A stretch of 64,000 nt of DNA. It comes from an uncultured Rhizobium sp. Lineage in GTDB: Bacteria > Pseudomonadota > Alphaproteobacteria > Rickettsiales > UBA1997. Positions 288 through 59,122 of this stretch are shown here, piece by piece. A program made the position numbers and the translations under genes. Every line of letters starts with the position of its first letter. The first letter of the stretch is position 1. The notes under the pieces were generated by a model that was not told where the DNA came from, did no database searches, and was given only the letters and a program-made list of their open reading frames with translations. Location of the stretch: positions 989 to 64,988 of the forward strand of contig CAZICL010000006.1 in the NCBI GenBank assembly GCA_964537735.1, read 5' to 3'.

Positions 288-986
288 TTAATTAGAGTTG
301 CTTAACAAATATTCTAACGCGATTTTTGCCACCTCTTTTTGTGCTTCTTTTTTTGATTTTCCAGCAGCGCTAAATTCCAGATTTAAATTGTTAATCTTAA
401 CAGTAGAGACAAATTCTGGCGCGTGATCCAAACCACCGCTTTTTATTGTAATATATTCCGGCAATTGCTTGGTACGAAGCTGCACCAGTTCTTGTAAATG
501 CGACACCGGATCCTTCGGCGGAGCAATATCTTTTTGTAAATATTGCTGCCAGATTTCTAAAATAAATTTTTTGGTCTTAAAAAAGTCAGAATCAAGGTAA
601 AGTGCGCCAATCAAGGCTTCTAGCGAATTTTCTAAATTACGTTTATTGGTTGCACCACCCAAGTTTTTTTCACCTTTACTAACTTTAATAACCGAATTTA
701 GACCAATTTCCAAAGCAATCTCTGCCAAAGTTTCGCCGGAAACTAAAACAGCCTGACGCTTAGAAAGATCACCCTCCGACTCATTTAAATATTTTTGCAT
801 CAAAAATTCACCGATCACCAAAGATAAAACCTTATCGCCCAAAAATTCTAATCTTTGATAGTTTGGTTTTGCCTTATCTTCTTTGGAAAGACTGGGATGG
901 GTTAGCGCTTCTTCCAGCAATTTTTCATCGACAAAATTATGACCGATTTTTTCACAGAAATTTTTTAAAGAATTTTCACCAACCAT
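288..986 (-). CDS. rnc: ribonuclease III
   Basis: 232-aa ORF with the RNase III signature (QRLEFLGDKVLSLVIGEFL) and a C-terminal dsRNA-binding-like tail (GKSKKEAQKEVAKIAL). Confidence 0.95.
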   Translation of the reverse strand: MVGENSLKNFCEKIGHNFVDEKLLEEALTHPSLSKEDKAKPNYQRLEFLGDKVLSLVIGEFLMQKYLNESEGDLSKRQAVLVSGETLAEIALEIGLNSVIKVSKGEKNLGGATNKRNLENSLEALIGALYLDSDFFKTKKFILEIWQQYLQKDIAPPKDPVSHLQELVQLRTKQLPEYITIKSGGLDHAPEFVSTVKINNLNLEFSAAGKSKKEAQKEVAKIALEYLLSNSN

Positions 987-1489
987 TACAAAAGAGATTT
1001 TAATTTAGCCAAATTAGCTTTGGCTGATCGAACAAGACCCTGCAATTCTAGCTTGCGATAATCACTAAACTGCATCTCAGAATCAGCAGTGATAAAATCA
1101 TCAAGAGCAATTTTGTCTTCGCCATCAACTTCCATCATGTGCGCTTTCTCTTCAGCTGAAATATCGACATGTAAGATCACATCAAGATCTTCATCTTTGT
1201 ATAAATTATGTTTACGTTTTTTGAGTAACTTCTGCAAACCAGCGATAGTATAGCCTTCATCGTATAAAAACTGCTTGATCCTTTTTAAAACTTTTAGCTG
1301 TTTGTTGTAGTAATAACGGCGTTTTCCGGCACCAATTTGCGGCCTTATTTGCGGGAATTTTTCTTCCCAAAATCGAATAACATGAGTTTCAACCTTAAGT
1401 TCACGCGCCACATCGCCAATTGATCTTTTGCGATCAATACCAAGATCATCAGCAAGTTTTTCTATCTCTCTGGCAATATCGTGAACCAT
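986..1489 (-). CDS. MerR-family transcriptional regulator
   Basis: 167-aa ORF with an N-terminal MerR-type HTH (SIGDVARELKVETHVIRFWEEKFPQIRP). Its stop overlaps the rnc start. Confidence 0.8.
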   Translation of the reverse strand: MVHDIAREIEKLADDLGIDRKRSIGDVARELKVETHVIRFWEEKFPQIRPQIGAGKRRYYYNKQLKVLKRIKQFLYDEGYTIAGLQKLLKKRKHNLYKDEDLDVILHVDISAEEKAHMMEVDGEDKIALDDFITADSEMQFSDYRKLELQGLVRSAKANLAKLKSLL

Positions 1490-1491
1490 TT

Positions 1492-2547
1492 TTAAACAAA
1501 TCTTTTTTTATATTCCGTCGCAATATTTTTGACTATAACTCCAGAAATTGCGGTGAGTGGAACTGCGAATAGAACTCCGATAAAACCGAAAGAAATACCG
1601 AAGAAAAACAGTCCAAACATCAACCATAAAGGATGTAATCCAATTTTTTCACCAACCAATTTTGGCGTCAAAAAATTTGATTCTACAACTTGTCCAATCA
1701 AGAAAACTAAAGACACTAAAGCAATATTTTCCATATCCAAACCCCATTGAAATAGAGCGACAATAATTGCTATAGTAACACCGATCAACATGCCGACATA
1801 AGGAATAAAAACCAACATTCCCGTCATAAAACCAATTAAAAATCCAAAATTAAGATTGGTAAAACTGAGCATTGCTGCATACATGATACCGAGCATCAAA
1901 CACACATTGAACTGACCGCGAATATAACCAGACATGGTTTTGTTGATGTCTAAAAAAACTTTACGAATTTGATCGCCACCGTTACGCGGCAAATATTCGT
2001 TAATTTTTTTCACAATAACTTCCCAATCTTTCAAAAAATAAAACAACAAAATCGGCGTTATAAAAAACAATGAGAGCATGTTCAGCAACACTGAAGAGGA
2101 ATTAATTAAATTACCCAGCAAGTCTTTGGAAAAATTGATCGCCTTTGACGCAACATCTTCTTTGGCTGCTAAATGGGCAAAATCATCCTCGAAAGTGAAT
2201 CCCATATTATTGGCAAATTTGGAGAATTTGGGATAAAATTCAGTAGTTATAATTTTAAAATAACTAGGAATGCTATCAATAAACTCAATGGTTTGAGAAT
2301 AAATCACCGGAATAATCAAAAGACTAACTCCAATCAAAGTGGCAAAAAATAATCCCAGAATCAACGAAGTAGCACGCAAACGATTTATTTTATATTGGCG
2401 GTGAAAGCGGTTAACCAGAGGGTTTAAAAAATACGCAATCACAATTGAGCAAATGAAAGGCGTCAGCACTGATCTCACTGAATAAAGCAAGTAGGCGCAG
2501 CAAAATAGTGCTAAAGCAACACAAATTATTTTTTCCCTTAATTTCAT
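1492..2547 (-). CDS. AI-2E (PerM) family transporter
   Basis: 351-aa polytopic membrane ORF whose layout and C-terminal conserved block (VGEKIGLHPLWLMFGLFFFG) are typical of AI-2E/PerM permeases. Confidence 0.85.
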   Translation of the reverse strand: MKLREKIICVALALFCCAYLLYSVRSVLTPFICSIVIAYFLNPLVNRFHRQYKINRLRATSLILGLFFATLIGVSLLIIPVIYSQTIEFIDSIPSYFKIITTEFYPKFSKFANNMGFTFEDDFAHLAAKEDVASKAINFSKDLLGNLINSSSVLLNMLSLFFITPILLFYFLKDWEVIVKKINEYLPRNGGDQIRKVFLDINKTMSGYIRGQFNVCLMLGIMYAAMLSFTNLNFGFLIGFMTGMLVFIPYVGMLIGVTIAIIVALFQWGLDMENIALVSLVFLIGQVVESNFLTPKLVGEKIGLHPLWLMFGLFFFGISFGFIGVLFAVPLTAISGVIVKNIATEYKKRFV

Positions 2548-3671
2548 TGGCCTGAAGATTTAAATGTTGGGATAGCCAGGGAGGCAGGAGATTGAAAAGA
2601 AACCGTGTAAAAATTATCAGCTTTTTTGCTGAGATTAAAACCCAAGTCAACAAAGGCAGCGACTATATCTGGATTAGATCCAACATAGTCCACAGCGACC
2701 CGGACATAATCTTTTGAAACTGCTTCAATATTCATTTGCGAAATTAAATTACTGCTCTCGATTTTATTTTTTAGCATCATCCAATTAGCCAAACTGTGAA
2801 CTCTGATTTCAAGCTTAACTATATTGTCAATTTTAGCCGAATTATCGCTTTGACTAGCAATCAAATATTCAATCGTCTTGTCAGCAACTTTAGATAGCAG
2901 TTCATCTTTGCTTAAGCGGTTAATATTTACAAAATTAAGTTTAACCTGCTTTTTTTGTAATTTTTTGATTTTTTTAACCACGATGCTGACCTTATTTTCA
3001 ATATTATCAGGATAGAGAAAAACCACATAAGCGCCAGCAGCTTTATACCTAACAAAAAGAGGCTCCAGCTGGCTATAGTTAAGCCTATCAACATTATTTT
3101 GATTTATAATTGAAACATTGCTGATGTCATTTTCCGGCAAAATAAATTTTTTCAGCGACTTAGCTGTCAGGCTTTTCTCAATAACACTTTTCCAGTCATT
3201 ATCTTCTTCCCACAAAATAAATTTATCTGATCCACCTTTAGCTTTAATCACTTTAACCGGAATCAACAAATAAGGGTCTTCCTCATTAACAGTGACATCA
3301 ATTGATTTATTTTTCAGAACCTGATCAACAGCATTTTTAAAAAATGAAATATTGAGAACCGCTGAATAGCTGTTGCCGGCAATTTTTTCTTCAGCTATAT
3401 GTTCTGAACGCACCATGTCAAAAATCTGATCATTGCTCACCCCATCAGCAATCTTAGAAGAAAGTGATAAACGAGAGAGTAAAGTCGCAAAAGCATCGCG
3501 GCGGGCATTATTGGTAGCTATAATCTTAGCATCTCCGGCCGATTTTGCTGCAGCCGCAGTGGCAACATTTTCAACAGTATAAATATTGTCTTTCTGTGCG
3601 TAACTTTCGGAAAATAGTGCTGCAAAAAATAACGAGAAACTAATACAAAATATTCTAAACAACTTGAACAT
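2544..3671 (-). CDS. secreted/periplasmic protein, tentatively DUF2066-like
   Basis: 375-aa ORF with an N-terminal signal peptide (FSLFFAALFSESYA). It overlaps the AI-2E gene by 4 nt and is divergent from purM, an arrangement I associate with DUF2066 proteins. The family call is tentative. Confidence 0.55.
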   Translation of the reverse strand: MFKLFRIFCISFSLFFAALFSESYAQKDNIYTVENVATAAAAKSAGDAKIIATNNARRDAFATLLSRLSLSSKIADGVSNDQIFDMVRSEHIAEEKIAGNSYSAVLNISFFKNAVDQVLKNKSIDVTVNEEDPYLLIPVKVIKAKGGSDKFILWEEDNDWKSVIEKSLTAKSLKKFILPENDISNVSIINQNNVDRLNYSQLEPLFVRYKAAGAYVVFLYPDNIENKVSIVVKKIKKLQKKQVKLNFVNINRLSKDELLSKVADKTIEYLIASQSDNSAKIDNIVKLEIRVHSLANWMMLKNKIESSNLISQMNIEAVSKDYVRVAVDYVGSNPDIVAAFVDLGFNLSKKADNFYTVSFQSPASLAIPTFKSSGQ

Positions 3672-3799: not shown

Positions 3800-4807
3800 A
3801 TGTCTTTAAGCTACAAACCTTTAACCTACAAAGCAGCCGGCGTTGATATTGATGCCGGCAATGAACTGGTTAACCGCATTAAACCTTTTGCCAAAGCAAC
3901 CTCAAGACTTGGCGCCGATTCTGATTTGGGAGGGTTTGGTGCGCTTTTCGATTTAAAGAAATGTAATTTTAAAGATCCGGTTTTGGTTTCTTCAACTGAC
4001 GGTGTGGGCACAAAATTAAAAGTGGCCATCGATTCTAACAAGCATGACACCATCGGAGTTGATTTGGTCGCCATGTCAGTAAACGACCTTGTAGTTCAAG
4101 GCGCTGAACCCCTTTTCTTTTTAGATTATTTTGCCTGTTCCAAACTTGAAGTTGCAGTTGCAACTGACGTCATCAAAGGAATCGCCGATGGTTGTAAGCT
4201 TGCTGGCTGTGCTTTAATCGGCGGCGAAACAGCAGAAATGCCAGGAATGTACCAAGCCGGAGATTACGATTTAGCCGGATTTTCCGTTGGTGCTGTTGAA
4301 CGCGATGCAATTTTACCAAAAGCCACTAATACTGGCGATGTTTTAATCGGCCTTAAATCCAGCGGTTTGCACTCAAATGGCTATTCTTTAGCACGCTACA
4401 TACTTTCACAAAATAATGTCAAATTCTCCGATCAATATTCCGACGAAAAAACCGTTGCTGACTTACTTTTAGTTCCAACAAAAATTTACGTAAAATCTTG
4501 TTTAGCAGCGCTTAAAACTGGAAAAGTCAAAGCCTTATCTCACATCACTGGCGGTGGGCTTACTGAAAATCTGCCTCGGGTTTTGTCGAAAAATGTCACT
4601 CCCAAAATCGACTTTCAATCTTGGACGCGCCCCGAAGTTTTCAACTATTTACAAAAGCTAGGCAATATTGCTGACGAAGAAATGCATCGCACTTTCAACT
4701 GCGGAATCGGCATGGTTTTGGTTGTGGCCCAAGGTGACGAGCAAGAAGTGATCGAAACTTTACAAAAAAACGGTGAAGAAGTTTTTGTGATCGGCGAATT
4801 AATTTAG
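3800..4807 (+). CDS. purM: phosphoribosylformylglycinamidine cyclo-ligase (AIR synthase)
   Basis: 335-aa ORF with PurM motifs (SSTDGVGTKLK, IGGETAEMPGMY, HITGGGL). Confidence 0.95.
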   Translation: MSLSYKPLTYKAAGVDIDAGNELVNRIKPFAKATSRLGADSDLGGFGALFDLKKCNFKDPVLVSSTDGVGTKLKVAIDSNKHDTIGVDLVAMSVNDLVVQGAEPLFFLDYFACSKLEVAVATDVIKGIADGCKLAGCALIGGETAEMPGMYQAGDYDLAGFSVGAVERDAILPKATNTGDVLIGLKSSGLHSNGYSLARYILSQNNVKFSDQYSDEKTVADLLLVPTKIYVKSCLAALKTGKVKALSHITGGGLTENLPRVLSKNVTPKIDFQSWTRPEVFNYLQKLGNIADEEMHRTFNCGIGMVLVVAQGDEQEVIETLQKNGEEVFVIGELI

Positions 4808-4902
4808 TCACTTTTTTGCTAAAGATAAAATTTAGACCCTTGATTTCACTGGTTAAAAGTTAATTTTCTCCCGCGGAGAAAATTCAAAAATTCACTTACA
4901 AA

Positions 4903-5712
4903 ATGATTAATCGCAAAAATTCAGTTCACTTACAAAATTTTCCTGACGTCTCTTTTCTACCTGACGAAACCACATTAGTTGCCGACATGGATTTGGTACG
5001 CAGCCTTTGTTCCACCGCCTTGTCAATTCGCGACAATAAAAATTTACGCGTGCGCCTGCCTTTAAATAAAATGATTGTAATTGGCAAAAACGCCGCGCGC
5101 ATCTTGCCTTTCAAAGAAGTGATTGCCGAAGAAATCAATGTCAAAAATATCGAAATTAAAGAAGATATTTCACAATTAGCTGAGCTGAAATTGCAGATTA
5201 ATTTCAAAAAAATCGGCGCCAAATATGGTTCTAAAATCAAGGAAATCACTAACGCTGCTAAAGCCGGAAATTGGCATAAAATTTCTGAAAATGAAATTGA
5301 GATTGCCGACGTGAAATTGGTTGATGATGAGTTTGAAATTAAACTTACCACCAAAAATGATGACCCGACAAAATTTGCCATTCTGGCACTGCCCACCAAC
5401 GATTATTTGGTTCAACTCGATATCGAAATTACCAAGGATTTGGAAGATGAAGGCATCGCCAGAGACGTTGTGCGCGCCGTACAACAAAACCGCAAAGATG
5501 CCGATTTAGATATTTCTGATCACATCAACTTAAAAATCTTTTCCAGCAATCCGCGCATTTTGGAAGTTGCCACAACTTTCAAAAAATACATTTGCGAACA
5601 AGTTTTGGCCGACTCTCTTAACTGCGTTTCTGATGCCACAGAAGTTAAGAATGCTACCAAATTCTCTTTCGAAAATAAATTGGATGACGGTGATTTAACG
5701 ACCGCTTTCTAG
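4903..5712 (+). pseudogene. ileS: C-terminal fragment (about the last quarter) of a type-2 isoleucyl-tRNA synthetase; the catalytic core is absent
   Basis: The 269-aa ORF begins at the IleRS ...SVHLQNFPD... block and carries the C-terminal IleRS pattern (LRVRLPLNKM, EEINVKNIEI, INFKKIGAKYG). No HIGH/KMSKS or editing domain is present, and only 95 nt separate it from purM. Confidence 0.7.
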
Positions 5713-5725
5713 CTGCACTACTCTT
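5682..5725. repeat. direct repeat copy 1 (37 nt exact, 44 nt with 1 mismatch) at the ileS-fragment 3' end
   Basis: ggatgacggtgatttaacgaccgctttctagctgcac at 5682-5718 is identical to 6801-6837. The match continues to 5725/6844 with one mismatch. Confidence 0.95.
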
Positions 5726-6632
5726 AATAAATTTGCCATTTTTTATTGAGATAACTTTGCACATCTGACTCTTCCTCAGTAGTTAATTTTCTGCTAAACA
5801 TAACAACCTCAAAAGTTCGACCAATTACTCCTCCCACTAAACTGTTAGTAATTGCTGGACCTGGATAAGAACTGCTTGGCGGTATTACTGTATTTCTTGC
5901 TTGTGTGGCACTGTTGGTAGCATTTCTGCTGCTGCTGCTAATCTTTATATCTGCTCCATCGTAGCTGGTAGTTACTAAAGTGATGGTGTTGAATTGTGAT
6001 AAAGCTGTAATTTGCGCTCTTGGTTCAAAAGAGCTACCATCAAAGACATAAGCCGATAAACGAGAAGAGTTAGCATCATTGCCACTATGTGGATTATATC
6101 TGAAGAATGATGCGCCATTCAGTGCAAAAGAGAATGCTCTATTTCCAACCAATCCAGGAGCATCTAACTCGGTTACGGCAAATATTGTAAATTGTTGAGG
6201 AGTATCAGACGCATTACCTGAAGCAAGACTACAGGGAACTGTGACAGCTTTGAAATTTACCGATGGCAGACTATTGCGATAGTTTGCTTGATAGGTTGGC
6301 TTCGCAGCATCTGTTGCTTGAAGCAGAGTGATTTTTTGCAAATTCTGCGGATTAATATCATACCAGGTTGAGATTTTGGCACCATCAACAGCTTCTGATT
6401 TAATGAAGCTTTCTTCCGCAGCTGCATCAAGCCATAAATATAAATCGTTGATCCCGGCGATAGGCGAGCTTTTGGTTAAAGACCTTGCAGTACTTAATCT
6501 TGCCTTATCCAGCAATTTATTTCCCGAAACAACACCCGTAATTAACACTCCAATAATTAGAATTACGATTGAGAGTTCTATTAAAGAAAAAGCCCCATAT
6601 TTCTTTTTTGAAAGAACCGAATTTTGCTGCAT
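5724..6632 (-). CDS. prepilin-leader (type IV pilin/pseudopilin-like) protein with a LamG-like C-terminal domain
   Basis: The 302-aa ORF has an N-terminus (MQQNSVLSKKKYGAFSLIELSIVILIIGVLITGV) with a prepilin cleavage/methylation-type motif and hydrophobic helix. Its C-terminal tail (FEVVMFSRKLTTEEESDVQSYLNKKWQIY) resembles the end of LamG/concanavalin-like domains. Confidence 0.7.
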   Translation of the reverse strand: MQQNSVLSKKKYGAFSLIELSIVILIIGVLITGVVSGNKLLDKARLSTARSLTKSSPIAGINDLYLWLDAAAEESFIKSEAVDGAKISTWYDINPQNLQKITLLQATDAAKPTYQANYRNSLPSVNFKAVTVPCSLASGNASDTPQQFTIFAVTELDAPGLVGNRAFSFALNGASFFRYNPHSGNDANSSRLSAYVFDGSSFEPRAQITALSQFNTITLVTTSYDGADIKISSSSRNATNSATQARNTVIPPSSSYPGPAITNSLVGGVIGRTFEVVMFSRKLTTEEESDVQSYLNKKWQIY

Positions 6633-6800
6633 AATTTTAAGAGAAAAAATGTTTTATTAGTCAACAGTGTTTACAGCAAAACCATTTCAAACTTGAACAA
6701 AAAAATTTAGCTCTACGCACTAAAAATAAGTCATGAGACCGCATGATAATTTGCAAGCCTTTTTAGTTAAAGAGACAAATTGGGGGAATATCTAAATAAT

Positions 6801-6844
6801 GGATGACGGTGATTTAACGACCGCTTTCTAGCTGCACCACTCTT
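6801..6844. repeat. direct repeat copy 2; it encodes (antisense) the last 11 codons and stop of the 792-aa ORF
   Basis: Identical to 5682-5718. Read on the reverse strand it gives ...DERVVQLESGR-stop. Confidence 0.95.
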
Positions 6845-21271: not shown

Positions 21272-22081
21272 ATGGATTTTTTCGCAATTCTAAATTCACA
21301 ACTTTCTTCTTCAGCGCAAGTTTTTTTAGTAACAATTTTTGGCCTTATATTTGGCTCATTCGCCAGTCTTTTAAGCCATCGCTTGGTCAGCGGCGAATCA
21401 ATTATTTTCGCCAGATCACAATGTCCAAAATGCCACTACAAACTTCAAATCAAAAATTTAATACCGTTATTTTCCTGGTTGTTGCAACGCGGCAAATGCA
21501 GCAATTGTCACAGTAAAATCTCTGTGCGTTATCCCATAATTGAACTGAGCTTCGCTGTTGCCTTCGTAATTATTTATTTTGTTGGCGGCCAAAAAATTGA
21601 CTATCGTTTAATACTGCTATGCCTGATTTCCTTTGCGCTAATCATGATGTGCATCACCGATCTTGAGCATTATTTTATTCCCAATTCACTGCAATATTTG
21701 CTGACAATATTTGTCATCTTGCTGCGCATTAATGACGACGGAGTTTATGGTTCTCTCACCTATATTAAAGCGGCTTGTGCCTACGCCGGATTTGGTTTAG
21801 CCTTATTACTACTATTTTACGTCACCACCAAAACAGAGGCTATCGGCATTGATGATATTAAATTATTTTTCATCGCCGGACTGCTTTTAGGCATCAATAA
21901 TTTTCTGCTATTTATGATGATTAACGGCGTTATCGGTACAATTTTTGGGGCAATTTGGCAAAAAATAAAAAATGACGGCACCTTTCCTTTCGCACCTTCA
22001 ATCGCAATAGCCTTCTATATCGCTATGCTTTCCGGCGATAAGATTAATCTTGTTGAAACTTTAGGATCGCTAATTTTTTAA
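21272..22081 (+). CDS. pilD: A24-family prepilin peptidase
   Basis: 269 aa with the N-terminal Cys-rich box (CPKCHYKL...CSNCHSKISVRYPIIEL) and a polytopic body containing conserved Asp residues (ITDLEHYFIP, GIDDIKLF). Confidence 0.85.
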   Translation: MDFFAILNSQLSSSAQVFLVTIFGLIFGSFASLLSHRLVSGESIIFARSQCPKCHYKLQIKNLIPLFSWLLQRGKCSNCHSKISVRYPIIELSFAVAFVIIYFVGGQKIDYRLILLCLISFALIMMCITDLEHYFIPNSLQYLLTIFVILLRINDDGVYGSLTYIKAACAYAGFGLALLLLFYVTTKTEAIGIDDIKLFFIAGLLLGINNFLLFMMINGVIGTIFGAIWQKIKNDGTFPFAPSIAIAFYIAMLSGDKINLVETLGSLIF

Positions 22082-48209: not shown

Positions 48210-49766
48210 ATGAGCCTTTTAAGAAAAATTTTACTTCCGGCACTATTACTGGCTTTACTTTCCTGTAACCAAAAGAAAGAAGATTCGGACAAAAATTCCA
48301 AAACAAAAAAATCTGAAGCTCAGAAAGAAGCTGATGGCACAGCAATTCCTAGTTTCTCGAAACTGATTATGGCACCACCGCCACCACAAATTGGTGGCGA
48401 TAAAATCATTTCTTTTTCCGTTACCGATCAAGTTCCGCTTAAAGACGTGTTGATTGAACTCGGGCGCGTAGCAAAGATTGATATCGACCTTGACAGCGGC
48501 ATCAACGGCGGTGTTGTAATTAACGCCCACAATCGTCCGCTTAAAGAAGTGATTGATCGCATTGCCACTGCCGGTAAATTGCGCTATTCTTACGAAAATG
48601 GTGTTCTGCATTTTGAACGTGACTTGCCTTACAACAAAAATTATTTCGTTGATTTTCTTGCCACCGGTCAACTTTGGTCTGATGTAGAAAGCAACATTTC
48701 AGCTATACTTTCGGACACTCACGGCAATACTAACGAATCGGCTTTGGATTCTTCCAGCAGTGGTCTTGCCCTCGCTCCTCCATCAAGATTCACTAGCAAT
48801 AAATCTGCCGGCATCATCTCGGTTTACGCCTCAAAGGCCCAACAAGAAAGTGTCTCTAAATATCTTGATGATGTTTACAAAAATTCTTCTGCTCAAGTTC
48901 TGATTGAAGCAAAAGTCGTTGAGGTAACTCTCACAAAACAATTCGACACCGGTATCAACTGGAGTTGGGTTGACGCTGGGAAATCATTTTCTACTACTGG
49001 ATCTTTTGCCTCTACTGGAGGCAGCACTACCCCAGCTTTTACTGCAACCGCTCCTAATGTTAAATTATTCGGCCTTGGTGGCACCTTAAGCGCTAGCATT
49101 AAAGCCTTGGAAGGCTTTGGTAAAGTTCACGCTCTTTCCAGCCCAAGAGTTAACGCCATAAATAATCAGAAAGCGCTATTAGATTTCACACAAAAGAAAA
49201 TTTATTTCACCGTTAGTTCGTCGTCTTCCACTTCTACAGGAACAGCAACTAACACTGTTGCTACTGTCACCGCCACTGAAAATTCAGTTGATGTGGGAAT
49301 TAAGCTGGAAATCACCCCGTCAATTAATAGAGCCACCAATGAAATTACACTGGATGTAAAACCAAAATTATCTCTTGATTCCGGTCAAGTTGCTGTCGAC
49401 CCTTCCGTTAACCCTTTAACCGGCGAATCTTTGGGCAACACAATTCCAATTATCAATTATCGCGAACTAGCAACTATCGCCAAAGTGCAAAGCGGCAATA
49501 TTCTTGTTATTGGTGGATTAATTGCCGAAGTCGGTTCGGAAGGCGGCAGTGGTATCCCAATTTTTATGCGCATCCCTGTCCTTAAATATCTTTTCGGCTA
49601 TTTCAGCAACTACTCTACCAAAGTTGAAACTGTGATCTTTATCAAAGCCACCATCATATCTAGCAGCAATTCTTTGGAAAAGCATGATCACACACTTTAC
49701 AATCGCGACAATCCAGATCGCAAAAAAACCAGGTGGGAAAAATATTTTGACTACAAAAACGATTAG
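48210..49766 (+). CDS. lipoprotein secretin (MshL/PilQ/GspD family)
   Basis: 518 aa with a lipobox (LALLSC), an N-terminal STN-like module (VPLKDVLIELGRVAKIDIDLD) and a secretin core (LSSPRVNAINNQKA, VQSGNILVIGGLI, GIPIFMRIPVLKYLFG). Confidence 0.85.
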   Translation: MSLLRKILLPALLLALLSCNQKKEDSDKNSKTKKSEAQKEADGTAIPSFSKLIMAPPPPQIGGDKIISFSVTDQVPLKDVLIELGRVAKIDIDLDSGINGGVVINAHNRPLKEVIDRIATAGKLRYSYENGVLHFERDLPYNKNYFVDFLATGQLWSDVESNISAILSDTHGNTNESALDSSSSGLALAPPSRFTSNKSAGIISVYASKAQQESVSKYLDDVYKNSSAQVLIEAKVVEVTLTKQFDTGINWSWVDAGKSFSTTGSFASTGGSTTPAFTATAPNVKLFGLGGTLSASIKALEGFGKVHALSSPRVNAINNQKALLDFTQKKIYFTVSSSSSTSTGTATNTVATVTATENSVDVGIKLEITPSINRATNEITLDVKPKLSLDSGQVAVDPSVNPLTGESLGNTIPIINYRELATIAKVQSGNILVIGGLIAEVGSEGGSGIPIFMRIPVLKYLFGYFSNYSTKVETVIFIKATIISSSNSLEKHDHTLYNRDNPDRKKTRWEKYFDYKND

Positions 49767-59045: not shown

Positions 59046-59122
59046 GGGATCATAGCTCAGTTGGTTAGAGCAGGATGCTCATAACGTCTTGGTCGTAGGT
59101 TCGAGTCCTACTGATCCCACCA
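59046..59122 (+). tRNA. tRNA with CAU anticodon (tRNA-Ile2/lysidine type favoured over elongator tRNA-Met)
   Basis: I folded the 77-nt cloverleaf by hand: acceptor GGGATCA/TGATCCC, D-stem GCTC/GAGC, anticodon loop CTCATAA, T-arm GTAGG-TTCGAGT-CCTAC, and an encoded CCA. The AGCAGG...TTGGTCG context resembles E. coli ileX more than metT. Confidence 0.85.

Follow-up and report, generated by a model that had tools for sequence, protein, structure and literature searches.

The window analysed here comprises 64,000 nucleotides (nt) of contig CAZICL010000006.1, which derives from an uncultivated alphaproteobacterial lineage, probably Rickettsiales-like. We describe a short direct repeat that brackets a single gene for a pilin-like protein and carries the 3' ends of the two convergent genes on its flanks. 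Downstream of purM, the plus strand encodes the C-terminal part of an isoleucyl-tRNA synthetase (IleRS) as a gene of its own, termed ileS-C. It faces the pilin gene, a gene for a protein of 792 amino acids (aa), called the 792-aa gene, and lysC, all three on the minus strand. Coordinates are collected in Table 1, together with the synonymous divergence (dS) between the window and its closest relative, the contig L007. The N-terminus of the pilin-like protein, KKYGAFSLIELSIVILIIGVL, shows a prepilin cleavage/methylation motif followed by a hydrophobic helix (PF07963, 22.9 bits versus a cutoff of 21.2), and its homologues are annotated as prepilin-type and carry the LamG-like domain PF13385. In the upstream region of the gene a block at about 6712-6770 with a promoter-like site (6770 to 6743) is common to L007, while the remainder differs by large indels. 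A prepilin peptidase (21272-22081) and a secretin (48210-49766) are also encoded in the window. It holds one pilin gene only, with no silent cassettes.

Table 1. Features of the locus, and dS between the window and L007. Positions are those of the window unless a locus is named.
Feature	Position	Strand	Basis or value
purM	3800-4807	+	Pfam scan
ileS-C: 269 aa, end of anticodon-binding domain and DUF5915	4903-5712	+	Pfam scan, homologues, structure match
Repeat copy 1 (R1), ends ileS-C	perfect core 5682-5718; extended copy 5673-5725	+	
Pilin gene: 302-aa prepilin-type protein, inserted gene	5724-6632	-	translation, Pfam scan
Pilin upstream region	6633-6800	-	comparison with L007
Repeat copy 2 (R2), ends 792-aa gene	perfect core 6801-6837; extended copy 6793-6844	-	
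Probable tail-to-tail overlap, ileS-C end and 792-aa gene end	6814-6831, 18 nt	both	inference from repeat and L007 alignment
792-aa gene: Pth-like N-terminal domain and peptidase C26 / GATase-like C-terminal domain	6814-9192	-	translation, Pfam scan
lysC	9305-10540	-	Pfam scan
Very recent recombination tract common to L007	5718-6268, 551 nt		dS comparison
524-aa membrane protein between ileS-C and lysC	L016 6899-8473; L017 6920-8494		
792-aa gene, whole length including last 40 codons			dS 1.2-1.9
ileS-C codons 1-165			dS 1.18
ileS-C codons 166-260			dS 0.46
Pilin codons 1-126			dS 0.41
Pilin codons 127-302			dS 0.017

The 37-mer GGATGACGGTGATTTAACGACCGCTTTCTAGCTGCAC was found exactly twice in the window, both times on the plus strand and 1119 nt apart, just as an earlier note on this DNA had reported. 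None of 100 dinucleotide-preserving shuffles yielded a match, even with 3 mismatches permitted. Ungapped extension gave a repeat of 45 nt with one mismatch (5681-5725 and 6800-6844) instead of the roughly 44 nt described before; the single mismatch and the upstream 1-nt indel of that description held up, and the match of 'AAATAA' across this indel, read from the sequence, lengthens the repeat to about 53 nt. The 37-mer of R1 comprises 1 nt of a Leu codon, 9 codons of ileS-C (DDGDLTTAF), the TAG and 6 nt further. Read on the minus strand, that of R2 comprises 7 codons of the 792-aa gene (VQLESGR), the TAA and 13 non-coding nt, and the 45-nt version adds an R and a V codon to give 9. The earlier note had correctly placed the TAG in copy 1, but the 10 codons it counted there are 9 whole codons and 1 nt, and the 11 codons (DERVVQLESGR) assigned to copy 2 were an overcount. 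The 13 nt that follow the ileS-C TAG in R1 encode RVVQ in the frame of the 792-aa gene and are identical to R2 at 12 of 13 positions; R1 as a whole reads RVVQLESGR and a stop in this frame. Positions 6801-6813 of R2 are non-coding and represent a remnant of the ileS-C tail.

The two readings of the repeat are antisense to each other, codon for codon. Within 6814-6831, the TAA of the 792-aa gene is the antisense of an ileS-C Leu codon and the ileS-C TAG that of a Leu codon of the 792-aa gene, and the last 5 codons plus stop of the 792-aa gene are the exact antisense of the ileS-C tail. With a single copy of the repeat, the two genes would have 18 nt in common at their ends, an overlap that recombination between R1 and R2 would bring back. 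The contigs of three sequencing runs (SRR2177968, SRR2177952, SRR5855237) were identical to the window except for one mismatch in about 10 kb, and the repeat is shorter than the k of the assembler (k127 in the contig names). Logan contigs were built at k=31 and end inside the repeat because the graph collapses it; such ends are uninformative on circular forms.

Both readings of the repeat represent native gene ends. For ileS-C this follows from the tail KFSFENKLDDGDLxVGF, which is conserved in 30 homologues and belongs to the best-conserved stretches of the family. The 792-type family is very rare, with 5 clusters among 5.8 billion proteins and one distant match in 185,579 species genomes. The tail of its reading is judged native because three distant members, found in unrelated contexts, keep A-x6-L-x2-(R/K)-(V/I) shortly before their C-terminus, and the 45-nt repeat includes the R and V codons of this motif. 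Each cluster of the family lies in a different genomic context, and the 792-aa gene probably moves horizontally. The peptidyl-tRNA-hydrolase-like N-terminal domain of the 792-aa protein retains the motif SRHNAGF, and its C-terminal domain is of the class-I glutamine amidotransferase-like type.

The gene upstream, taken for an IleRS fragment in the earlier note, turned out to be anything but debris. A search with ileS-C at E ≤ 1e-5 returned 465 proteins, of which the best 120 were stand-alone proteins of 264-356 aa (nearly all 264-279) with 67-82% identity to the query, many of them from metagenome-assembled genomes labelled Rickettsiales, Alphaproteobacteria or Proteobacteria. In 20 metagenome loci ileS-C directly follows purM, and this position is kept in at least 20 lineages at 55-82% identity (loci L016-L035, L101 and L102). 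Against L007 a ratio of nonsynonymous to synonymous divergence (dN/dS) of 0.10 was obtained, which points to purifying selection. A truncated pseudogene was ruled out by the stand-alone homologues, which are conserved in hundreds of genomes, by the conserved tail and by this ratio. The protein corresponds to residues 769-1007 of the 1032-residue type-2 IleRS structure PDB 8c9d. It comprises only the end of the anticodon-binding domain and DUF5915, without the class I catalytic core, and is not a full-length IleRS. Matches of at most 43% identity appear within full-length ileS genes (confirmed in 7 loci, open reading frames (ORFs) of 1056-1138 aa). Taken together, the data suggest that IleRS is split in this alphaproteobacterial clade, or that one of its domains exists there as a free-standing protein. 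No match to the N-terminal IleRS part was obtained in the fetched clade loci, and a limited literature search returned no paper on DUF5915 or a split IleRS.

The same arrangement was detected in L007, a Logan contig and the only relative found with a 792-type gene. There, ileS-C faces the pilin gene, which is followed in the same orientation by a gene for a 786-aa protein, 74% identical to the 792-aa protein. The background dS between both genomes is about 1.2-1.4, and the flanks are only about 75% identical. At the corresponding two positions L007 carries a 64-nt direct repeat of 84% identity. Directly beyond the stop of the 786-aa gene its DNA reads as an ileS-C tail ending in EEISNTAKFSFANKLDDGDLTIGF and a stop. 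In the ileS-C frame this remnant, (ALIC)SSQEEISNTAKFSFANKLDDGDLTIGF followed by a stop, covers 24 certain and up to 32 codons (E = 7e-12 to P0007); it is longer and more decayed than that of the window. In both genomes the last residues of the 792-type protein are exactly antisense to the adjacent ileS-C-type tail (LESGR against TTAF and stop in the window, LETNR against TIGF and stop in L007). Because the L007 remnant ends in frame and its stop overlaps the last codons of the 786-aa gene, an ileS-C end is concluded to have once overlapped the 792-type gene tail to tail, by 18 nt. This bears out the proposal of the earlier note that the two genes converged and overlapped with their native ends. 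Since the remnant spans 24-32 codons, the duplicated segment would originally have measured at least about 85-110 nt, the 37-mer of the window being its probable surviving core. The proposed insertion of the pilin gene with duplication of the overlap is in line with the gene lying between two junction copies, but the duplication was evidently not the 37-44 nt assumed before. As it is common to genomes at dS of about 1.2-1.4, the duplication appears to be old. Relatives with the same structure and no empty site had been named in the earlier note as speaking against an insertion. This is what L007 presents, and we read it as evidence of age and not as evidence against insertion.

Within each genome, the two copies of the old duplication are uniform in their core. 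The core is identical between the copies over 37 nt in the window (45 nt with one mismatch) and over 29 nt in L007. Two positions, 5682 (G/A) and 5691 (T/C), distinguish the two genomes, and they do so in R1, where they are synonymous sites, as well as in R2, where they are non-coding. The identity of the core holds though 13-21 nt of copy 2 are non-coding, while the adjoining remnant shows about 77% and then background identity. Because a duplication that predates the split of the genomes and evolved independently does not predict the shared differences at 5682 and 5691, the identity of the core would require that the copies converted each other or recombined, or that recombination in the core formed the junction anew.

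The dS values of Table 1 reveal nested tracts. Within 5718-6268 only two synonymous differences were counted (99.6% identity), in surroundings with a dS of 0.4-1.4. This tract starts at the right end of R1, where the last difference is at 5717, and stops in the middle of the pilin gene, close to the point where many homologues cease to align (N-terminal-only matches with 38-44% query coverage and 47-55% identity). An older, though still 'young', block ends between the pilin start and R2. The pattern indicates a very recent swap of the C-terminal module of the pilin (176 codons) between lineages, unless the Logan contig is chimeric. As the tracts are nested and their boundaries lie at or beside the repeats, the locus would be a hot spot of homologous exchange between diverged lineages.

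Comparison with further relatives identified the region between ileS-C and lysC as a variable slot. In L101 (ileS-C 82% identical) the slot is empty: purM and ileS-C are followed by a spacer of 385 nt (5515-5899), lysC on the opposite strand, and ppiD and pabB on the strand of ileS-C. In L016 and L017 (ileS-C 81-82% identical) an unrelated multi-pass membrane protein occupies the slot, and the start of its gene overlaps the end of lysC. More distant lineages (20 further loci) keep purM and ileS-C and differ in the genes downstream. Among the 21 other loci no pilin-like ORF was found after ileS-C, and no second copy of the ileS-C tail was present downstream of the gene in any of these 21 lineages. 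No 792-type gene accompanied ileS-C in the 20 clade loci of the metagenome scan. According to these comparisons, the slot is probably a lineage-variable insertion hot spot, and both the 792-aa gene and the pilin gene appear to be gains of the window/L007 lineage. The empty site which the earlier note expected in relatives, with ileS-C abutting a 792-type gene, did not turn up; ileS-C faced lysC (L101) or another gene (L016/L017) instead.

In search of a mobile element, Pfam scans of the window ORFs of at least 150 aa yielded no integrase, recombinase or transposase, in agreement with the earlier note; six of these ORFs (four at 288-3671, one each at 12670 and 14259) were judged by precomputed Pfam annotations. 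All results on mobility genes in the following refer to this set, in which housekeeping genes, the prepilin peptidase, the secretin, RecO and HipA were recognized. No terminal inverted repeats were found at 5726 or 6800, the ends of the unit. The core was found nowhere in the rest of the window or in viral contigs, and among 102 fetched loci it was restricted to window-type loci and L007, which rejects a dispersed repeat, a possibility also raised before. No third copy lies within 16 kb of the locus, and a tandem array of islands was discarded on this basis. The core itself, read from the sequence, contains an inverted motif of 4 bp only. A transposon or insertion sequence was rejected on account of a repeat of at least 45 nt, the lack of terminal inverted repeats and the lack of a transposase. 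An integron cassette was likewise rejected, with no significant fold, no inverted repeats at the ends and no integrase. The only tRNA gene of the window lies at 59046, which removes a tRNA-linked island from consideration. The base composition of the insert is not foreign, with a uniform GC content of 0.36-0.43 across the slot. The repeat is also not recognizable as a terminator or structured RNA: neither copy has a terminator-like site, no Rfam family matched, and the fold was no better than that of shuffles on either strand (z of -0.7 to +0.1). General use of the ileS-C end as an attachment (att) site was discarded, as none of the 21 other lineages has a tail remnant there. Homologous pilin-type genes elsewhere (L096 and L100) have no flanking repeats, and pilin genes are not repeat-flanked cassettes in general. 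In view of these results, the earlier suggestion of an att-type core found no support.

We favour, at a probability of roughly 0.6, the interpretation that the junction of two convergent genes was duplicated long ago and that the repeat is the best-preserved part, or core, of this duplication, an insertion scar kept homogeneous by recombination. In this clade ileS-C would originally have faced lysC. The rare 792-aa gene would then have come to lie against ileS-C in the lineage of the window, with an 18-nt overlap of the 3' ends in which each codon faces a codon of the other strand. Later, the pilin-like gene with its own promoter would have been placed between them, leaving a copy of the junction, at first at least about 85-110 nt long, on each side; R1 would complete ileS-C and R2 the 792-aa gene. 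The insertion may have proceeded by recombination via homology in the conserved ileS-C tail, either as a Campbell-type single-crossover integration of a circularised fragment or as a homology-anchored integration of foreign DNA. Afterwards the non-coding part of R2 would have decayed, with the core homogenised within the genome by recombination or gene conversion. Homologous recombination with related lineages would still be going on at the locus, its crossovers falling at or beside the repeats. We infer this order of events, the recombination mechanism and the gene conversion from the anatomy of the locus and its comparison with relatives. Homology-based recombination is the most likely mechanism, and a cut by a transposase or integrase is less likely, because an identical core lies between diverged arms, no signature of such an enzyme was found and homologous recombination is active at the locus. 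An integrase was sought and not found, and recurrent use of the site was not observed; for these reasons the unit is not filed as an att-type integrative element. It is not a demonstrated mobile element.

Several observations weigh against this history. The structure is known from two genomes only, and one of them, L007, is represented by a single short-read Logan contig. The near-identical tract might be an assembly chimera, in spite of its 2 private differences. Neither the metagenome scan for ileS-C nor the genome scan for the 792 family revealed a genome in which ileS-C abuts a 792-type gene directly, and the state before the insertion is a reconstruction. Efficient gene conversion would not be expected between repeats as short as 30-45 nt. 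In R1, the 792-type stretch of 13 nt could stem from a later gene conversion and not from the duplication, and in L007 these 13 nt adjoin the recently imported tract, hence they are not independent evidence. Finally, the remnant protein of L007 is closer to the tails of other lineages, with 83% over 24 residues in the case of P0007, than to that of the resident gene (63%), which would fit a donor origin as well. Nucleotide identities were uninformative on the origin of this remnant, with no other lineage clearly closer.

The last point leads to a block import as the competing history. Here the pilin gene would be the older neighbour of ileS-C, and the 792-aa gene would have arrived from a related donor, where it overlapped the ileS-C of that donor, and would have brought the last 70-100 nt of this ileS-C along. 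For its integration, lysC would have served as the homologous anchor, with the other end joined illegitimately upstream of the pilin promoter, and the tails of the two genomes would later have been partly homogenised. Such an import would explain the protein similarity of the L007 remnant, agrees with the rarity of the 792 family and the different context of each member, and accounts for a dS of 1.2-1.9 in the 792-aa gene versus 0.4 in the 3' third of ileS-C and the pilin gene, which implies different histories of the two sides. Nevertheless, we consider it unlikely: the RVVQ codons past the ileS-C stop in R1 would need an extra conversion, no relative among the 21 loci has a pilin gene beside ileS-C, and the nucleotides of the remnant do not point clearly to any other lineage. 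A two-step origin, in which a small tandem duplication separated the overlapping ends and the pilin gene entered the new spacer later, would produce the same final anatomy, and tandem duplications are common. It demands two independent events at exactly one point, no relative with two adjacent copies and no pilin gene was found, and no result specifically favours it; we regard it as clearly improbable. An artefact, with the pilin segment misjoined through the short repeat, can practically be dismissed. It would agree with the breaking of short-k Logan contigs within the repeat, but 37-45 nt are far below the k of the assembler, and the same join is present in independent samples and in a relative with only about 75% identical flanks.

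Two further readings assign a function to the repeat. If it were the att core of a non-autonomous, site-specific cassette of 1.1 kb, mobilised by an integrase encoded elsewhere, the cassette would restore both gene ends on insertion. An identical core with diverged arms does resemble attL and attR, the tract boundaries coincide with R1 and fall near R2, and precise excision, as read from the sequence, would restore both ORFs. We consider such a cassette quite unlikely, given that recombinase genes, further copies of the core and remnants at the ileS-C end of the 21 other lineages were all missing from the searched sets and that the homologous pilin genes elsewhere are without flanking repeats. 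In addition, the element was not recently shared as a whole, as seen from the dS of 0.41 for the N-terminal part of the pilin and the large indels of the upstream region, and the inverted motif of the core is limited to 4 bp. A related idea dispenses with an integrase: the 1.1-kb unit would enter, leave and spread by recombination in a core of 30-45 nt that doubles as two gene ends on opposite strands. We give this minimal cassette as little credit as the att core. If true, gain and loss of the pilin gene would never damage the neighbours, loss would bring back the overlap of ileS-C with the 792-aa gene in cis-antisense, and cycling or selection for RNA pairing would uphold the identity of the core, which would not be a passive scar. 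Selection for antisense pairing in trans, between the 3' end of the ileS-C mRNA and that of the 792 mRNA, or the intercistronic RNA between the 792-aa gene and the pilin gene, could also maintain identical copies. The R1 sense RNA and the R2 minus-strand RNA are perfectly complementary over 37 nt, and the two variable sites co-vary between the genomes with complementarity kept. Gene conversion predicts the identical co-variation, however; no terminator, Rfam family or significant fold was detected at the repeat, and the argument is based on two genomes. Selected pairing appears very unlikely to us.

Against this background the locus was compared with known systems. Genomic islands insert in the 3' end of tRNA, tmRNA or protein-coding genes, where direct att repeats rebuild the gene end. 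The pilin insert resembles them in being bracketed by direct repeats that hold the 3' end of the target (R1 and R2 both contain the ileS-C tail), with a complete functional end on one side, a displaced, decaying copy at the far side, and an identical core between diverged arms. Unlike these islands, the insert consists of a single 0.9-kb gene and its promoter with no integrase in it or elsewhere in the window, the repeat carries the coding end of one gene on each strand, and a comparable use of the site was seen in no other lineage. Campbell integration duplicates a homologous segment as direct repeats with a crossover core, and homology-facilitated illegitimate recombination accompanies natural transformation. 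The position of the insert beside a homologous anchor matches both, as does repeated exchange between lineages at the locus; homology of this extent (about 85-110 nt, of which 30-45 nt form the core) is, however, short for RecA-dependent integration. Typical target-site duplications of transposons and insertion sequences measure 2-14 bp. Like the present repeat they are direct repeats of the target that flank an insert, but with 45 nt today and probably at least about 85 nt originally it is too long, as the earlier note had rightly argued, and terminal inverted repeats and a transposase are missing. With integron cassettes the unit has in common that a single gene lies between repeats resembling recombination sites; it differs in having no attC-type imperfect palindrome, no IntI and no array, and the pilin gene has a promoter-like region of its own. 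Pilin loci vary by allele exchange and by gene conversion of the pilE/pilS type. The swap of a variable C-terminal module by crossovers in conserved flanks, namely the N-terminal module and the end of the downstream gene, is similar, but the window has no silent cassettes, and exchange took place between lineages and not within a genome.

What is unusual about the locus is that one short sequence forms the coding end of two genes on opposite strands, both of which were preserved by its duplication. It offers a natural example of a gene inserted into an overlapping convergent pair with neither partner harmed, each copy of the overlap serving one strand. It also indicates that a short duplicated core can evolve in concert, with boundaries of recombination tracts at or beside it, in a setting in which a locus for a pilin-type surface protein is exchanged between genomes otherwise saturated at synonymous sites. 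A new class of elements is not proposed, unless excision or cycling of the unit should be demonstrated. The conserved stand-alone gene for the C-terminal part of IleRS may hold the wider interest.

Some additional observations concern the neighbourhood and the homologues of the genes described. Pilin-type paralogues or homologues occur singly in other contexts (L096 7001-7843 and L100 282-1187, 46% and 51% identical). One such gene lies after an OmpA-like gene on another contig of a sample shared with the window contig (ERZ909576), and another, from a different metagenome, is convergent with a true peptidyl-tRNA hydrolase gene. The start codon of ileS-C is bracketed by a further direct repeat, TTCACTTACAAAAT, which is perfect over 14 nt (4891-4904 and 4925-4938); its upstream copy runs into the ATG and its downstream copy encodes VHLQN. 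This repeat is present in L007, too, and the contig of a second sample (L002/L004) stops between the two copies, at window position 4918. After purM, a hairpin (about 4865-4885 in the window, about 4620-4598 on the reverse strand of L007) has kept its position and pairing with a different sequence (TTTCTCCCGCGGAGAAA versus TTTTGCGCACCGTGCGCAAAA), and is probably a terminator with compensatory changes. An ORF of 157 aa antisense to ileS-C (4926-5399 on the minus strand of the window, 6024-6497 on that of L016/L017) is open in three lineages; rather than being a real gene, it most likely results from the codon usage of the sense gene.

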